From: Candidatus Daviesbacteria bacterium | GTDB taxonomy: Bacteria; Patescibacteriota; Microgenomatia; Daviesbacterales; UBA10151 | DNA length: 43,477 bases | Direction of reading: 5' to 3' | Assembly: GCA_016187035.1 (NCBI GenBank) | Contig: JACPKL010000007.1 | Location: forward strand, 1-43,477 | Part shown: piece by piece, positions 7,509 through 27,177 of the stretch | How positions within the stretch are numbered: the first letter of the stretch is position 1 | Layout of the letters: each line of letters opens with the position of its first letter | Position numbers and translations under genes: made by a program | The notes under the pieces: generated by a model | What the model saw: the letters and a program-made list of their open reading frames with translations, nothing else | Told to the model about the DNA's origin: nothing | Databases searched by the model: none

Positions 7509-7556
7509 CAGCTTCCAACCCCAGGGGTTAAATACGTTCAAACCCCAGGAAATAGC
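7509..7556. repeat. REP-like family A elements (about 1.5 copies) downstream of RAYT-1
   Basis: AGCTTCC-AACCCC-A-GGGGTT-AAATACGTTCAAACCCCAGG immediately after the transposase stop codon. Confidence 0.85.
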
Positions 7557-7557
7557 T

Positions 7558-8226
7558 TTATTCTAAGGTTAAATGCTTTATCATTCCCAATTCCCTTTGG
7601 TAATCTGCCTGATTAAACACAAATTCCCTATATTTCTTCTCATTAATAATACCTAAAATTTGCTTAGTATCCACAAAAGGATATCTACCCTCACCTATAT
7701 AATTTAATAAAGATGACCAGGGATAACTTTCTAAATCTTTAATCTCCACTAAATAGCTGGTGGAAGGGTTTAAATGAATATATCTTGAAACATGTAAAAA
7801 CTGTTCTTCTGTAGTGATTCTGACGGTTTTGAACATTGGCTGGAACAAAGGACCGTTTCTAGCAGATTTAGCATTAAAATATTTAGCATAGCTATTCTGT
7901 AAATTACTTATAAATTTAACAATCCCGCGGTCAAGCTTTTGTTTTAGGAGAAAGTGAAAATGATTATCCATCAAGCAAAAAGCTAATATCTCTATATGCA
8001 GATGATTTTCTTTTATTAAATCATCAAAAATTTGTTTTCTTTGCTCTCTTTCTATATTTTTTAATTGAGAAAAACTAACTGGAGTATTCTTAAAACGGTA
8101 GTAATTTATCAAATCCAGGAAACGTAAAAAATCTATTGAGGTTGAAAATATCGGTATCCCTGCAACAGCCCTATTAAACACATGGTAAATTTCTGAAGTG
8201 ACTATGGGAACTTTTCTATATGGCAT
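7558..8226 (-). mobile_element. REP-associated tyrosine transposase (RAYT/TnpA-REP-like, HUH Y1 family), copy 1
   Basis: YHVFNR, FCLMDNHFHFLL (HUH), YAKYFN, RYIHLNP (catalytic Tyr) and YPWSS motifs; family A palindromes on both sides; no tnpB nearby. Confidence 0.9.
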
Positions 8227-8237
8227 AATTCAATTAT

Positions 8238-8283
8238 AACCCTGGGGTTCAAAGCTAATCAACCCCTGGGGTTTGAACGTAAC
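8238..8283. repeat. REP-like family A doublet upstream of RAYT-1
   Basis: AACCCTGGGGTTCAAAGCTAATCAACCCCTGGGGTTTGAACGTAAC; encodes the C-terminus and stop of the adjacent substrate-binding protein. Confidence 0.9.
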
Positions 8284-9898: not shown

Positions 9899-10300
9899 TT
9901 AATGAGCTAGCCACTGAAGGAAATGGGTAATAATACCTATCATGAAAGAGGCTACTACTGCTACCCAAAAAGTACTTAACCCTATAGCAGGAAGAGAGAT
10001 ACCAAAAAAATTTGCTCCTGGAAAATTATAAGGCAGCAGCTGAAAATCAGATATTATGGTAGTTAAGGCAAACAAAGCTAAAACATTAATAATCCAAGCA
10101 AATAATCCTAATGTTAATAAGTTAAGTGGTAAAAATAATATTTTCAAAAGTGGGACCAAAATAAAATTGATCAGCATAAAAGCAACTGCCCCAATCAGTA
10201 AACTCTTAATTCCCCCTGTATAGGTTAACCCTGGCAAATATCTTGTGGTGGCATAAAGGGAAACCAAATTTATGAGAAAATACCTTAGCAGAGTCTTCAT
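9899..10300 (-). CDS. 4-TM phage-holin-family (YvlD/DUF360-like) membrane protein
   Basis: PLNLLTLGLFAWIINVLAL signature; 133 aa hydrophobic. Confidence 0.85.
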   Translation of the reverse strand: MKTLLRYFLINLVSLYATTRYLPGLTYTGGIKSLLIGAVAFMLINFILVPLLKILFLPLNLLTLGLFAWIINVLALFALTTIISDFQLLPYNFPGANFFGISLPAIGLSTFWVAVVASFMIGIITHFLQWLAH

Positions 10301-11604
10301 CCTAATATTCTATCACGTAATTTTCTGTGATAGGAAATGGCAAATCTGTGGGATTCATCACGGAGTTTTTGCAGCAGCCTTAAAGATAAACTGCTCTTGG
10401 GTAATTTGATAATTTTACCTTCGGCAGGATAAAGCCACTCCCTTTTTTTGGCAAGACCAAAAACAGGAATTTGAAAATTGAAAATTGAAAATTGAAAATT
10501 TACTACTCTAGCCTGTCCCCTACCCCCATCTACTATTATTAGATCAGGGAATTGCCATTCTGTATGTTTTAACCTTCTTTTTATCATTTCTCTATGCATT
10601 CCTACATCATCTGGCCTGCCAGAAATTCTTATTTTAAATTTTCTATACTGGGATTTATCAATCTCACCAGCAATTATCACTACCATTGATCCTACCGCAT
10701 CTTTTCCGCCAATATTAGATATATCATAACCTTCAATTCTTCCAGGTAATTTATCTAAATTTAAATCTTTTTGTAGCTGCTTTAAAGCTAATTTATTTTC
10801 TTCTTCTAAAAAGTTAGGATTTTCTAAGTAAGCCTGGGCCCTATTAGTTTGAGTAAGATAAGAAATTCCATCTAACATTTTTTTTACTTGAGCAGCTTTT
10901 TCAAACTGCTGAGTCTTTGATAACTCCATCATTTCTTTTGATAATCCTGATACCAACTCTTCCTTTTTCCCTTCTAAGAATTTAGAGAATCTTTTGATAA
11001 TCTTGCTATATTCTTCTTTATTAATCATTCCTGTACACAAACCAGGGCACAATCCTAAATGATAATAGAAACAAGCTCTATGTTTAGCCTGCCCCGTACC
11101 ATACGATACTGGAGCCTGCAACCTCGAAGGTTGCAGCGTGAATTTGGGAGGGTTGCTACACCAGGGAAAAACCCTTCTAAGTTGCTTCAGAGTATTCCTT
11201 ACTGTCCTGGATGAAGGAAAAGGGCCAAAAAACTTTTTAACTGTTTTTAAATCTTTTTTCCTGATCGTGACTACTTTAGGAAACTGTTCATTTGATATAC
11301 CAATATAAAGAAAGTCTTTATCATCAGTTAATCTGATATTAAAAGGCGGAAGGTGTTTTTTAATCAAGTTAGCCTCCAGAATTAGGGCCTCTAATTCTGA
11401 TTCAGTAATATAGGTTTCAACTGAGGATATATTGGATACTAAGGCAGCAGTTCTACCATCAACATTACGGTTAAAATATGAGGAGACACGGTGATATAAA
11501 TTAATAGCTTTTCCAACATACAAAATATCTTCTTGGCTGCTTTTAAATATATAAACCCCACTTTTTTTGGGTAATTTTTCCTTGTTTAAAAAGGAAGGAA
11601 TCAT
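10297..11604 (-). CDS. uvrC: Excinuclease ABC subunit C (short form, no obvious C-terminal HhH)
   Basis: GIY-YIG region (GVYIF, LYVGKA), RIEGYDISN, PDLIIVDGGRGQ and RDESHRFA motifs. Confidence 0.95.
   Translation of the reverse strand: MIPSFLNKEKLPKKSGVYIFKSSQEDILYVGKAINLYHRVSSYFNRNVDGRTAALVSNISSVETYITESELEALILEANLIKKHLPPFNIRLTDDKDFLYIGISNEQFPKVVTIRKKDLKTVKKFFGPFPSSRTVRNTLKQLRRVFPWCSNPPKFTLQPSRLQAPVSYGTGQAKHRACFYYHLGLCPGLCTGMINKEEYSKIIKRFSKFLEGKKEELVSGLSKEMMELSKTQQFEKAAQVKKMLDGISYLTQTNRAQAYLENPNFLEEENKLALKQLQKDLNLDKLPGRIEGYDISNIGGKDAVGSMVVIIAGEIDKSQYRKFKIRISGRPDDVGMHREMIKRRLKHTEWQFPDLIIVDGGRGQARVVNFQFSIFNFQIPVFGLAKKREWLYPAEGKIIKLPKSSLSLRLLQKLRDESHRFAISYHRKLRDRILG
10471..10500. repeat. Heptamer tandem repeat (TTGAAAA)x4 inside uvrC
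   Basis: Four perfect 7-bp units; encodes NFQFSIFNFQ. Confidence 0.9.
11082..11144. repeat. Composite 63-nt family B element in frame within uvrC, containing a nested 27-nt insert
   Basis: GTTTAGCCTG-[CCCCGTACCATACGATACTGGAGCCTG]-CAACCTCGAAGGTTGCAGCGTGAATT; AGCCTG duplicated at 11086-11091 and 11113-11118. Confidence 0.85.
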
Positions 11605-13567: not shown

Positions 13568-13604
13568 AGTTTAGCTTGCAACCTCGAAGGTTGTATCGTA
13601 AACT
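13568..13604. repeat. REP-like family B element upstream of RAYT-2; doubles as a putative promoter
   Basis: AGTTTAGCTTG-CAACC-TCGAA-GGTTG-TATCGTAAACT; TTGCAA (13576-81), 17 nt, TAAACT (13599-604), 6 nt, ATG. Confidence 0.9.
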
Positions 13605-13610
13605 AAAATT

Positions 13611-14264
13611 ATGCCAGGAAGAATAATTCCGCTAGTAACTGGAGAGTTTTATCATATTTATAATCGAGGCAGTGAAAAAAGGGATATTTTTACTCAATCA
13701 AGGGATTATCGCAGATTTCAAAAAACCTTTTACTACTACCAATTCTTAGGTCCTAAACCAAGTTTCTCTAAATTTTCAAAACCCGACTTGAATTCTTTCA
13801 AAGCTAATCCTGATAAGAAAATTGTTGATGTGATATGTTACGCTCTTATGCCAAACCATTTCCATTTCCTGCTTCGCCAGCTTAAAGAAAATGGAATTTC
13901 AATATTTTTGAGTCAACTTTCAAATAGCTACACAAAATACTTCAATACTAAATATAAAAGAGTAGGACCTCTCCTTCAGGGAGCATTCAAAGCAGTCCTT
14001 ATAGAATCAGAGGAACAACTAATACACTTATCCCGTTATATCCACCTTAATCCAGTAGTTTCTGGGCTGACTAAAAATTTAGGTAGTTACCATTGGTCTT
14101 CTTATACAGAATATATGAGTGGTCAGACATTATACTGCTCTCCGGAAGAAATCCTTAGTCTTTATCCAACTGTCAAAAATTATCAGAAATTTGTAGAAGC
14201 TCAAATAGAGTATGGTACTACTTTGGAAATACTAAAACATAGAATAATAGCTGAAGATATCTAA
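13611..14264 (+). mobile_element. REP-associated tyrosine transposase (RAYT/TnpA-REP-like, HUH Y1 family), copy 2
   Basis: YHIYNRG, YALMPNHFHFLL (HUH), YTKYFN, RYIHLNP and YHWSSY motifs; family B palindromes on both sides. Confidence 0.9.
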
Positions 14265-14269
14265 AATTC

Positions 14270-14330
14270 GTGCGTCAACCTCGAAGGCCTTCGGCCGTGA
14301 GCCTCAGGCCGAATCGGTTGCAGGCTAAAT
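14270..14330. repeat. Family B element downstream of RAYT-2, interrupted by a 30-nt hairpin
   Basis: GCGTCAACCTCGAAGG-[CCTTCGGCCGTGAGCCTCAGGCCGAATCGG]-TTGCAGGCTAAAT. Confidence 0.85.
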
Positions 14331-23848: not shown

Positions 23849-24592
23849 ATGTTATATATCATCCCAACCCCTATTGGTAATCTAAAAGATATTACTTTAA
23901 GGGCATTGGAGGTTTTACAAAGCGTTGATGGAATTGTTTGTGAAGATACCAGAAGAACTGCCCAGCTTCTTACCCACTACCAAATCAAAAAAAACCTGCT
24001 TGTTTTAAATGATTATAATGAAACAAAAATTTTCCCACAGATAATTGAGAGATTAAAAACCGAAGAGAACTTAGCTTTAGTCTCTGACGCAGGTACTCCA
24101 CTTATTTCTGATCCAGGATATAAACTGATCAGGGAATGTATCAGGGAAGGAATTATGATTGACTCACTTCCTGGACCATCTTCTGTGGTTACAGCTTTAA
24201 CACTCTCAGGGTTACCACCTGATAAATTTTTCTTTTTAGGCTACCCACCAGAGAAAGGTGGACAAAGAATAAAACTCTTCCAAAGTTTGTGCGTCAACCT
24301 GGAAGGTTGCAACGTAAATCCGGCGCCAGATAGGTGCTGGGTAAACTTGGGAACTATTGTAATGTTTGTCTCACCCTATAAGCTAATGAGAACTTTAGAA
24401 GATTTACAAAAAGTCTTTGGGGATATTGATGTTGTTCTAGCTCATGAATTAACTAAAATCCACCAAAGCGTGGAAAGTAAATTAATCAGCCAGTGGCTTA
24501 AGGATTTAAAATATCCAAAGGGAGAATATGTTCTGCTTTTCAGGCTAACCCCTGGGGTTCAAAGCTATTCAACCCCTGGGGTTGGAACGTAA
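23849..24592 (+). CDS. rsmI: 16S rRNA (cytidine-1402-2'-O)-methyltransferase RsmI, carrying REP-derived insertions
   Basis: LYIIPTPIGNLKDIT, CEDTR, LVSDAGTPLISDPG and ELTKIH motifs. Confidence 0.93.
   Translation: MLYIIPTPIGNLKDITLRALEVLQSVDGIVCEDTRRTAQLLTHYQIKKNLLVLNDYNETKIFPQIIERLKTEENLALVSDAGTPLISDPGYKLIRECIREGIMIDSLPGPSSVVTALTLSGLPPDKFFFLGYPPEKGGQRIKLFQSLCVNLEGCNVNPAPDRCWVNLGTIVMFVSPYKLMRTLEDLQKVFGDIDVVLAHELTKIHQSVESKLISQWLKDLKYPKGEYVLLFRLTPGVQSYSTPGVGT
24283..24348. repeat. 66-nt in-frame tandem of two REP-like hairpins inside rsmI
   Basis: AAGTTTGTGCGT-CAACC-TGGAA-GGTTG-CAACGTAAAT followed by CCGGCGCC-AGATA-GGTGCTGG-GTAAACTT; encodes about SLCVNLEGCNVNPAPDRCWVNL. Confidence 0.85.
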
Positions 24593-24594
24593 AA
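24545..24594. repeat. REP-like family A doublet at a convergent gene junction
   Basis: CTAACCCCTGGGGTTCAAAGCTATTCAACCCCTGGGGTTGGAACGTAAAA; near-identical to 8238-8283. Confidence 0.92.
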
Positions 24595-26068
24595 TTAACC
24601 TTTTTTCTGCTTGGTGTAACAACTCATGAACTCCTTGGGTTTCATATTTTTCTAAAATTAATCCATATACCCCTTTTTCTATTAAATATTCCAAAACTTC
24701 AGGATATAGGTTTAAACTTCCTAAAGCTATAAAAGGAATTTTAGATTTGTGAAGTAATTTCAAGCTGTCCTCCAAAAATTTTAATAATCCCTTAACTTCA
24801 TTTTTGTAAGAGGTTAATTCCTGCTGGGTGTTGTCAAACCCATTAAGATAAGATATTAACTCGTCAAGATTTAAAATAATCCCATCTAACCCTGCAGTCA
24901 AATAGTCTTCTAAATTAAGGATATTTTCTGGCAAACTTGCCTCCATCCAAATTTGTAAAGAATTTTTTCTCATTAGCTTCTTAACAGCTAATTCTCTTTT
25001 AATTTTAATAAGCTCAGATACATTTCTGATAAAGGGGATTCCAATATGTACATTCATTAGACCCTTTTTGTGCCTGACAAAATCTAAGGCATCTATTAAA
25101 GGGTTAAGTAAGCTTTTTTGGTGGATCAATCTTAATGCTCCCCTGATTTTACCCATTCCCTCAGATTTATCTGACAGCTTTACTAAAATAGGGGACGGGT
25201 GAAAAGCTAAGGATGCTTCAACTATTCTAAAAATTAAGTGATCAAAAGAATCCCGAGGTTTATCAAGATCAAGAATTTTCCCAGAATCTATGTAAATTCC
25301 ATCTACATCTTTTTCAATCACCATTCCTGAAGACAAATCCAAAAATACTTTGACTGTACTTCTTGGCTTTACTGTCCCTGTTTGTCTACCTGGTACAAAC
25401 CTGGTTTGGGATGAATATGCTGGAGTAACAGGAGTATAGGGTTTCAGGCCAACCAGCTTAATCCCATGATCATAGGTCCACTCATATTCATGAGGGATAA
25501 ATAGTTTTTTGTTAGCAAGCCTGACAATATTATCTAATTTCTTTAAATCATTAGGGTGCAGTTTACCAAACTTAATATTTATCACACTGTCCCATTGTAA
25601 AGGATCAAAAAACACCACTCCTTGGCTTTCTATTTTTTTAATAAAAATCACCACTTGAGAAGATAAGTTTTGGGTAATACCAGGATAAAACCCATCTTGC
25701 CAGATCCTTGTTTTAACTTCCTCAAGCCAAACATTGAGAAGCTTTTGCCAAAGATCTTTGGTTGATTTAAAAACTTCTTTATTTAAGAAAAATTTCTTAT
25801 GATGTCCGGTCTCTTCTTGCAAAATTTCCGGCACAGGTATAGATGCCAACTCTTTTTTGACTAAACTTAAGCTTTGCTCAAAAACTTCTTTTTTATCAAA
25901 GTTAAAGTGTTCTAAGATGGTTTTTAATTTAAATTCCGGAGCACTAACCACAATTCCATTACCAACAGGAAAATCTGCTCTGGCTAATTTTCCCAATGCC
26001 ACAGACAACTGGCCAAAAATCAGGCTGTCTTGATCAGTTAAGGATTTAATAGGCAGAATTTCCATCAT
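24569..26068 (-). CDS. Degenerate PEP-utilising-enzyme-like protein (PPDK/PEP synthase N-terminal remnant plus C-terminal TIM-barrel-like domain)
   Basis: LGKLARADFPVGNGIV N-terminal motif; IRGALRL, IPFIR, WMEASLP and LNLDEL resemble the PEP-utilizer C-terminal domain; no phospho-His domain recognised. Confidence 0.65.
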   Translation of the reverse strand: MMEILPIKSLTDQDSLIFGQLSVALGKLARADFPVGNGIVVSAPEFKLKTILEHFNFDKKEVFEQSLSLVKKELASIPVPEILQEETGHHKKFFLNKEVFKSTKDLWQKLLNVWLEEVKTRIWQDGFYPGITQNLSSQVVIFIKKIESQGVVFFDPLQWDSVINIKFGKLHPNDLKKLDNIVRLANKKLFIPHEYEWTYDHGIKLVGLKPYTPVTPAYSSQTRFVPGRQTGTVKPRSTVKVFLDLSSGMVIEKDVDGIYIDSGKILDLDKPRDSFDHLIFRIVEASLAFHPSPILVKLSDKSEGMGKIRGALRLIHQKSLLNPLIDALDFVRHKKGLMNVHIGIPFIRNVSELIKIKRELAVKKLMRKNSLQIWMEASLPENILNLEDYLTAGLDGIILNLDELISYLNGFDNTQQELTSYKNEVKGLLKFLEDSLKLLHKSKIPFIALGSLNLYPEVLEYLIEKGVYGLILEKYETQGVHELLHQAEKRLILRSNPRG

Positions 26069-26583: not shown

Positions 26584-27177
26584 CTAACATCTTCCCCAGA
26601 GTCCCTTTTTAAACTGTCTTGCTTCTTTTTCTGCTTGTAAAAATTGTTCATTATATTTTACATCTGGAGGATATGTATAAACTTTAGCAAAACCTTCCCT
26701 AACTAAATAATCATTAACAAAAAGCAAGCTGCCATCCTCTAAAGAAAGAAAAACTAATCTTAATAATCTGCCATATTTATCAGTCTCTGAAACATCTTTT
26801 TGAAGATAAACCACCTTACCTGTTAACAGGCTTTTAGTCTCATTTGAGGCCTCTTTACCAAAACAGCCAACAGGTCTTCTTGGATCAACAGTTTCAGGAG
26901 TATCTATACCTATCAGCCTGACAGTTTTTTCTCCATTTACTTTAATAGTATCTCCATCAACTACCTGGGTAACCAGGGCTTTCTCCCCTTCTATTCCTAA
27001 AGCAGAAGAAGAGGTGGCCTCAACAGAAGGTCTAGGGGAATTTGAGGCTAAATCCTGAGGTTCAAAGCTATTCAACCCCTGGGGTTGAAAGCTAAGTTGT
27101 GAAAACCAAAGTAGTCCAAAACCTAAAGTTATTATTAAAATACTGGTAAAAGTTAAGAATTTAGTATTAGAAAACAT
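26584..27177 (-). CDS. Membrane-anchored thermonuclease (SNase-like)
   Basis: VVDGDTI, VRLIGIDTPE, DKYGRLL and KGLWG motifs. Confidence 0.93.
   Translation of the reverse strand: MFSNTKFLTFTSILIITLGFGLLWFSQLSFQPQGLNSFEPQDLASNSPRPSVEATSSSALGIEGEKALVTQVVDGDTIKVNGEKTVRLIGIDTPETVDPRRPVGCFGKEASNETKSLLTGKVVYLQKDVSETDKYGRLLRLVFLSLEDGSLLFVNDYLVREGFAKVYTYPPDVKYNEQFLQAEKEARQFKKGLWGRC
27048..27096. repeat. REP-like family A doublet in frame in the nuclease linker
   Basis: CTAAATCCTGAGGTTCAAAGCTATTCAACCCCTGGGGTTGAAAGCTAAG; encodes LSFQPQGLNSFEPQDL. Confidence 0.88.

Follow-up and report, generated by a model that had tools for sequence, protein, structure and literature searches.

Two palindromic hairpins, one nested in the foot of the other, within the reading frame of rsmI in a Candidatus Daviesbacteria genome

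The stretch of DNA analysed here, hereafter the window, comprises 43,477 nt of contig JACPKL010000007.1 (assembly GCA_016187035.1) from a Candidatus Daviesbacteria bacterium, whose 1.04-Mb, 85%-complete genome is labelled G000 in our collection. All coordinates refer to the whole window. The locus under study is rsmI, the gene of a 16S rRNA methyltransferase, in which two adjacent hairpins occupy 22 consecutive codons. The first belongs to a family (family B) of repetitive extragenic palindromic (REP) sequences. The features of the locus, with the basis of each assignment, are the following:

23849 to 24592, + strand: rsmI, 16S rRNA (cytidine1402-2'-O)-methyltransferase, 247 aa (Pfam, TIGR00096, match to E. 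coli RsmI).
24284 to 24319, + strand: hairpin 1, a REP of family B type, 36 nt, codons 146-157 (SLCVNLEGCNVN) (repeat families, foot-stem-foot pattern).
24314 to 24319, + strand: GTAAAT, the 3' foot of hairpin 1 and first copy of a 6-nt direct duplication (sequence, alignment to the empty-site allele of relative L081).
24320 to 24340, + strand: hairpin 2, a nested 21-nt hairpin, CCGGCGCCAGATAGGTGCTGG, within codons 158-164 (fold; absent from relatives L081, L082 and L002).
24341 to 24346, + strand: GTAAAC, second copy of the duplicated foot, forming with 24320-24340 a clean insertion of 27 nt (9 codons) (alignment to L081).

The identity of the gene is well supported. Its product scores 89.4 bits against Pfam PF00590 (TP_methylase) and 208.8 bits against TIGR00096, above the curated equivalog cut-off of 167.9, matches E. 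coli RsmI (5HW4) with E = 2.7e-49, and retains each of the 57 residues that are invariant in an alignment of 97 family members. Between the segments RIKLFQ and GTIVMFVSPY lie the 22 codons SLCVNLEGCNVNPAPDRCWVNL, with three Cys and no stop. The initial annotation had described a 22-codon, in-frame insertion adding a Cys-rich peptide without breaking the frame. The block is confirmed, though not as one insertion (see below), and the coordinates given for it (24283-24348) were off by one base: the exact codon span is 24284-24349, that is, rsmI codons 146-167. When folded, the block forms a pair of neighbouring hairpins, with AAGTTT/AAACTT as the closing segments; its minimum free energy (MFE) is -32.7 kcal/mol (z = -4.07), a value equalled by none of 200 shuffles.

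The two-hairpin block is a genuine feature of the genome. Logan contigs of four runs cover positions 24100-24500 (or up to 24484 or 24489) with 0 differing letters, 0 gaps and no joints; those spanning the entire block measure 1.6 to 3.6 kb and belong to four separate metagenome assemblies, all from a single groundwater study, among whose runs the source sample may be included. A block created by misassembly across a repeat, or by faulty binning, would be conceivable, since an exact 30-nt copy of hairpin 1 (24282-24311) in another contig of the same samples might promote repeat-induced joins. Such an artefact, which had been named as a finding that would overturn the annotation, is nevertheless very unlikely, to the point of being hardly credible, because the four assemblies agree without difference; moreover, the reading frame is intact, and hairpins are found at the same place of rsmI in relatives from other studies. 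We have thus rejected it. With regard to the second contig, the copy of 24282-24311 has different flanks and depth, and represents either an unassembled part of the host genome or another organism with the same REP.

Hairpin 1 reads AGTTTGTGCGTC-AACCT-GGA-AGGTT-GCAACGTAAAT and falls in the window repeat families D2, D17 and I7-I11 of the repeat search, in agreement with its first description as a family B variant read as protein. Family B (consensus AGTTTAGCYTGCAACCTCGAAGGTTGCAGCGTAAACT) has about 12 core copies in the genome, six of them inside the window, and one of the copies, C2:9505, has the whole left arm TTTGTGCGTCAACCT in common with hairpin 1. A strict foot-stem-foot pattern, TTTR-N6-MACCY-N3-RGGTK-N6-YAAA, was searched with the reversed pattern as control. 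It is matched by hairpin 1 at 24286-24318, by 8 copies in the host genome (control 0), and in 15 of 41 related genomes, namely 14 of the 25 belonging to the same family and one outside it, with 2-8 copies per genome (control 0). Hairpin 1 is accordingly a short palindrome, its 36 nt falling within the 20-40 nt usual for REPs; it has an inner stem of 6 bp, a zone of internal mismatches and a foot that is paired, and it has dispersed copies in its own and in related genomes, in numbers that are low compared with proteobacterial REPs. Of the GTAG or CGTC tetranucleotide that tags one end of the REPs in the Di Nocera superfamilies, some copies have a counterpart: GTG-CGTC-AACC is found in the rsmI copy, in C2:9505 and in the copy at 14270, GTAGCC in one copy (20856), and TTTAGC or ACGTAAA in most, so that the tag is not uniform. 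The location departs from the usual REP description in not being mostly extragenic, as the rsmI copy is intragenic and 19 of the 39 REP-like hairpins of the genome fall within open frames 120 codons long or longer. These intragenic hairpins are read as H/N-L/P-x-G twelve times, as Q-P-S-R six times, and in the third frame twice. Judged by its pattern and its copies, hairpin 1 is REP DNA of family B.

The origin of hairpin 2 can be read from comparison with L081 (P0006, 73% identical). The allele of this relative is CAAAGTTTG-AGGCTACACCTGGAAGGTGTC-AACGTAAAC-TTGGGAACT, and that of the window CAAAGTTTG-TGCGTCAACCTGGAAGGTTGC-AACGTAAAT-(CCGGCGCCAGATAGGTGCTGG-GTAAAC)-TTGGGAACT; deleting the 27 nt in brackets gives ...AACGTAAA(C/T)TTGGGAACT, which matches L081. 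The alignment shows hairpin 2 to have entered the 3' foot of hairpin 1 as a clean insertion of 27 nt, with an empty site in L081 and a direct duplication of 6 nt (GTAAAT/GTAAAC) around it. What had been taken for one insertion of 22 codons thus consists of two layers, of which only hairpin 2, with its 27 nt and 9 codons, is a clean insertion with an empty site, hairpin 1 adding a net two codons (see below). In the same manner, the empty-site allele expected among relatives was found for hairpin 2, but none was found for the entire block. As for the first layer, the REPs of the window and L081 have identical feet and loop, and their stems carry paired differences at seven positions, so that the two look like products of a stem replacement.

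Allowing up to 5 mismatches, we detected no further copy of hairpin 2 in the genome, which is 85% complete. It is about 75% similar to small hairpins at C2:6559 and C2:16500, of the form CCCG(C/T)ACC-AGAC-GGTGCAGG, and these loosely similar small hairpins make up a family of four to six members. The same layout occurs in a second gene of the window:

11082 to 11146, - strand: in-frame family B REP with a nested 21-nt hairpin and a 6-nt duplication (AGCCTG), inside uvrC (10297-11604, - strand) (sequence, open reading frame context).

The nested hairpin of uvrC, CCCCGTACCATACGATACTGG, starts with CC and ends with CTGG, and is laid out as hairpin 2 in rsmI. The REP is read there as the peptide FTLQPSRLQAP, and the identity of uvrC is given by the Pfam domains UvrC_RNaseH_dom and GIY-YIG.

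No congener of the host genome is present in the collection, and the best RsmI match among 5.8 billion proteins has 76% identity; an empty site for the whole block is therefore unobtainable from a close relative. We turned to the family, in which loop DNA could be taken from 79 of 96 species. The rsmI DNA alignment across genera revealed hairpins that coincide in position and frame with those of the window, and REP-type hairpins occupy this loop in many genera, so that hairpin 1 cannot be regarded as particular to the present genome. Among the 120 best homologues, H/N-L/P-x-G hairpin peptides are found in the loop of 41 and ILDREHN-type peptides in 29. The loop segment ranges from 39 to 90 nt, and its length is a multiple of three in 79 out of 79 species. 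The native allele, carried by the majority of the more distant members, has 54 nt or 18 codons (R + 16 + T) and an MFE of about 0 to -7 kcal/mol. The other alleles are short (39-42 nt), single-REP (60 nt, 20 codons), TCGA-type (57-60 nt) or REP doublets (72-90 nt), and the allele HLGGESDRTPGE was observed in the rsmI loop of G095. In a single genus, g79, alleles of the native, short, REP, REP-doublet, TCGA-type and GC-hairpin classes are all represented.

Three hairpin families are found in this loop besides hairpin-free alleles, the REP being the first. The TCGA-type (ILDREHN) palindrome, CATTATATTCTCGAYCGAGAAYATAATG, is dispersed in 33 of 96 genomes, compared with 2 control hits, with up to 18 hits per genome; its middle pair covaries (T-A, A-T, G-C), and the family is absent from the host genome. 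It accounts for the rsmI loops of L008, L009, L022, L027, L030, L033-L035, L042 and L046. The third family is a GC-rich hairpin encountered in the rsmI loop of one species, G105 (L029), in which, by comparison with its congener G107 (L031), a hairpin of 30 nt, CCCGGCCTCGCTCCGCAAAGCGGGGCGGGC, is cleanly inserted in frame into the native allele. In G098 (L026), the loop carries an in-frame inverted REP doublet, CACCTGGAAGGTG ... CACCTTCCAGGTG, with a 13-bp long stem and an MFE of -27.7. Double H-L-x-G peptides resembling this doublet were also noticed in P0065 and P0076.

The lengths of these alleles bear on the way in which hairpin 1 came to its place. An origin by insertion only was considered and rejected, as the 60-nt allele can be derived neither from the 54-nt native nor from the 39-42-nt short alleles; with such a misfit, replacement, or insertion plus deletion, must be assumed. 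Since REP-free loops have 18 codons and single-REP loops 20, hairpin 1 would replace about ten native codons, the net gain being two codons and not 12. The initial annotation had stated that REP-free relatives with an equally long loop of unrelated DNA would speak against it, and this is partly the case, the native loop (18 codons) being nearly as long as the single-REP loop (20).

Could the first layer derive from a single ancient insertion, made in the common ancestor of a subclade of Daviesbacteria and followed by vertical inheritance and many losses? Most hairpin alleles agree in where they lie, in their frame and orientation and in their feet (S-L-R-L-H-L-x-G-V-K-L-N), the window and L081 having even the loop in common, and on an RsmI tree built with the loop masked, the allele classes are clustered, with 24 changes against 34.2 after shuffling and none of 500 shuffles as low. 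They are not monophyletic, however, and at least four REP-state changes are forced by well-supported branches, which number 13 of 117 in this tree. Furthermore, the stems are almost perfectly paired despite a divergence of the flanks down to about 70% protein identity, all allele types occur inside one genus, and the seven paired stem differences between the window and L081, with identical feet, have the look of a stem replacement. Some rsmI copies are also identical to copies in the same genome, over 33 of 33 positions with a copy 9.4 kb distant in G008, and over 21 of 21 with another genomic copy in G018. A single insertion in the past is a possible history, which we hold for clearly the less probable one compared with repeated arrival and turnover of REPs in the loop.

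The pairing itself is conspicuous. Across 13 rsmI copies of REP type, 77 of the 78 cells that make up the six inner stem pairs are paired, and four positions show alternative types of pair; when all 15 stem positions of these copies are counted, the figure is 151 of 195 cells, compared with 130.6 +/- 3.1 in shuffles (maximum 142). The protein reflects it, since in the classified hairpin alleles His (CAC) goes, without exception, with a G-initial codon after the Gly, and Asn (AAC) with a T-initial codon, so that a C-G versus an A-T base pair of the stem is visible through the protein. One may then ask whether the hairpin is a selected cis-acting structure of the rsmI mRNA or DNA, serving as a pause, stability or regulatory element or as a kept binding site for a REP-associated tyrosine transposase, with the peptide as a by-product. 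Compensatory pairing in 13 lineages and a protein-level signature in every hairpin allele would fit this proposal, as would the occupation of one loop by three unrelated hairpin families and the three G-U/G-T pairs in the stem of hairpin 2, which form on the sense strand only. Yet the native 18-codon loop is unstructured in most distant members, so that these members do without a hairpin; the same hairpins are also scattered over many unrelated genes and intergenic sites; and the identity of rsmI copies to copies of the same genome indicates copying rather than local selection. No Rfam family, terminator or promoter was found at the hairpin site of rsmI, which again counts against a cis-acting role, and we consider such a role improbable.

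With regard to the protein, an AlphaFold2 model was built from the 97-sequence alignment (mean predicted local distance difference test score, pLDDT, 79). Residues 146-152 form the end of a helix (137-152), and residues 152-168 a low-confidence loop before the strand 169-174, with pLDDT below 50 at residues 152-159 and 162-164. In E. coli nomenclature, the insert is the alpha6-beta7 connection of the core domain, where E. coli RsmI is 16 residues shorter. The surface loop that had been predicted for the insertion may correspond to this low-confidence loop. In the structure of E. coli RsmI on the 30S subunit, K148 and K150, just before alpha6, and H173, just after beta7, all contact 16S rRNA (PMC13037946). 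These residues stand at one end of the alpha6/beta7 pair and the loop joins the other; from this topology, the loop would lie at the end distal to the rRNA. The same 2026 cryo-EM study reports that a helical C-terminal domain of 42 aa, contacting h23b, is essential for the activity of E. coli RsmI (PMC13037946). This domain was not recovered in the window protein, whose TIGR00096 match spans profile positions 1-219 of 275, and it is lacking family-wide, the RsmI of Daviesbacteria having about 220-230 aa and ending in ...LLFRL at about 225 aa (relatives L002-L020).

Another idea is that the encoded peptide was recruited, as a Cys-based metal or redox site or as a new contact of the RsmI dimer or with the 30S subunit. 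Three Cys are present in 22 residues, the dimer interface of E. coli RsmI is formed by alpha4-alpha6, beta5-beta8 and their loops (Zhao et al. 2016, PMC5053481), and a replacement contact is conceivable in a protein that lacks the C-terminal domain. The Cys, however, are encoded by TGC codons that the TTTGTGC foot and the GGTTGC stem impose, and His-type alleles lack them; the loop peptide is not conserved across alleles, only the residues dictated by the palindrome recurring; the AlphaFold2 model has low confidence and no fold for the insert; and hairpin 2 is restricted to this lineage. Recruitment of the peptide appears to us even less probable than a selected nucleic acid structure.

The window also contains candidate movers of such hairpins, related to REP-associated tyrosine transposases (RAYTs), in the neighbourhood of which both repeat families are found:

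13611 to 14264, + strand: RAYT-like Y1 (HUH) transposase gene, with family B REPs at 13570-13606 and 14270-14330, the latter composite (Pfam Y1_Tnp, NCBIfam, flanking copies).
7558 to 8226, - strand: second RAYT-like gene, with family A REP doublets at 7510-7556 and 8228-8282 (Pfam Y1_Tnp, NCBIfam, repeats D1 and I2-I4).

The product of the first gene scores 23.9 bits with Pfam Y1_Tnp (cut-off 23) and 51.6 bits with NCBIfam REP_Tyr_transpos NF047646 (cut-off 80), and that of the second 38.9 and 47.1 bits, respectively, against the same cut-offs. As the Pfam cut-off is passed and the NCBIfam RAYT cut-off is not reached, both enzymes are best termed distant RAYT-like. Each gene is flanked on both sides by a repeat, family B for the first and family A, made of pairs of AACCCCTGGGGTT, for the second, which is the arrangement of a REPtron. 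The first gene is 10 kb from hairpin 1 of rsmI. The earlier view of RAYT-linked REPs finds support in that the family of hairpin 1 flanks a RAYT-like Y1 gene in the window, but the link is associative. From these gene contexts, the RAYT-like enzymes may be supposed to bind, cleave and mobilise the hairpins.

Taken together, the block is best explained, with a probability of about 80%, as selfish palindromic REP DNA lying in frame in the alpha6-beta7 loop of RsmI and most likely translated as a tolerated floppy loop, layer 2 being in this explanation as a whole the younger, lineage-specific addition. In a first step, a copy of the family B REP would take the place of about ten native codons, its stem changing thereafter by compensatory substitutions. 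In a second, the 27 nt composed of the 21-nt hairpin and the 6-nt foot duplicate would be inserted into the 3' foot of the first. RAYT-like enzymes would mobilise the hairpins as single-stranded DNA, and the loop would be hit repeatedly for being permissive, and since a resident REP may attract other REPs or be overwritten by them. The insert would be translated, and methyltransferase activity presumably retained.

Several points weigh against this explanation. The link to the RAYT-like genes is an association by neighbourhood, with both enzymes under the NCBIfam RAYT cut-off. A 6-nt duplication such as that around hairpin 2 is not a known product of HUH/Y1 chemistry, and because target duplications are unexpected from HUH/Y1 enzymes, layer 2 may have had a mover of another kind. 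The resolution of the RsmI tree is too poor for independent gains to be counted. No RNA runs containing the stretch were found, and translation and activity are predicted from the sequence. Finally, the alpha6-beta7 connection is among the elements of the dimer interface; the insert could possibly contact the partner subunit, and the loop may be other than a harmless surface one.

A bolder proposal is that the loop is more than permissive, being a true landing or overwriting site, in which resident REPs are recognised, rewritten with their stems swapped and their feet kept, and invaded by other hairpins, among them 21-nt ones entering REP feet with a target duplication of 6 nt, a footprint unknown from the HUH/Y1 chemistry of RAYTs and IS200/IS605. 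We judge it unlikely, less so than a cis-acting role, and if true it would amount to an undescribed insertion mechanism for very small hairpins, editing coding sequence in frame.

The insertion of hairpins in frame is, as an event, already known from Rickettsia palindromic elements (RPEs) and intragenic REPs. Di Nocera, De Gregorio and Rocco (2013, PMC3733652) described GTAG/CGTC REPs, some of which lie in frame in genes, with an enrichment in repair and RNA enzymes; the majority of intragenic inserts are dimers that code for 20-30 residues, and the recB genes of two Xanthomonas species carry different REPs at approximately the same position. Like them, the repeats reported here are short, dispersed, imperfect palindromes, single or paired, that flank a Y1 gene of RAYT or RAYT-like type and are in some cases in frame. 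They differ by their host, a member of the candidate phyla radiation (CPR; Patescibacteria), by their number of about a dozen copies per family in a 1-Mb genome, about half of them intragenic, by feet (TTTAGC / ACGTAAA / GCACAAA) other than a fixed GTAG, with CGTC in some copies only, and by the presence of at least three palindrome families in one loop across dozens of genera. A full-text search found no literature report of REPs in CPR bacteria.

The RPEs, as they are presented in PMC3733652 and PMC3184786 after Ogata et al. (2000), are in-frame palindromes in conserved protein genes, thought to be translated and tolerated in surface regions. The comparison drawn in the initial annotation is apt in this respect, both cases being in-frame palindromes in a conserved protein gene, but the two are alike in behaviour only. 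The length of RPE-1 elements is about 100-150 bp, and they have no known transposase. The rsmI units, by contrast, measure 21-36 nt, are linked to a RAYT-like gene, reside in another host and would have no sequence relationship to the Rickettsia families RPE-1 to RPE-8.

IS608 chemistry is not known to leave a target duplication. Hairpin 2 and the nested hairpin of uvrC differ from this system in being each flanked by a 6-nt direct duplication, but they resemble the wider IS200/IS605 TnpA group as hairpin elements with conserved feet, for which a hairpin-recognising Y1 enzyme is the presumed mover. In REPINs, adjacent REPs form a unit, and populations persist and evolve inside genomes alongside a single-copy RAYT (Bertels and Rainey 2011; PMC8049555). 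The inverted doublet of the G098 rsmI loop is of this kind, unlike the pair of the window, which is made of a REP and a different, smaller hairpin nested in its foot instead of an inverted pair of one sequence.

What is new in the present case is the two-layer anatomy, the empty site of hairpin 2 with its 6-nt duplication, and, throughout a CPR family, the presence of at least three palindrome families in one RsmI loop, with turnover within a genus. In ultra-small CPR genomes, with scant intergenic space, REP-type selfish DNA would be largely intragenic, and one loop of a conserved rRNA-modifying enzyme appears to have been rewritten repeatedly with the frame kept. The collection of alleles provides a natural map of the tolerance of RsmI for 10-30 extra residues. 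It also calls for caution in annotation and phylogenetics, as loop motifs such as HLEGV and ILDREHN are dictated by DNA palindromes and not by protein function. Lastly, the nested 27-nt insertion with its 6-nt duplication gives a small, testable hint on hairpin movement.

In other respects, REPs are read in frame elsewhere in the window, the other intragenic hosts being uvrC and an SNase-like gene, and a family A doublet reaches the end of rsmI itself:

27041 to 27095, - strand: family A REP doublet read in frame as the peptide LSFQPQGLNSF, close to the N-terminus of the product of an SNase-like nuclease gene (26584-27177).
24538 to 24592, + strand: family A REP doublet (AACCCCTGGGGTT twice), from which rsmI takes its stop and the 15 codons before it, and the convergent gene 24569-26068 (- strand) its end (repeats D1 and D3, ends of the open reading frames).

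The last 15 codons that rsmI takes from this doublet read TPGVQSYSTPGVGT, and the relatives terminate in ...LLFRL/M*. The convergent gene, which is PEP-utilizer-like, gets its final codons from the same doublet on the opposite strand. The composite family B REP at 14270-14330, beside the first RAYT-like gene, carries a 30-nt inner hairpin, CCTTCGGCCGTGAGCCTCAGGCCGAATCGG, in its loop. It also occurs at C2:5879, C10:79153 and C10:45716, and with four occurrences in the genome the composite has itself been copied.

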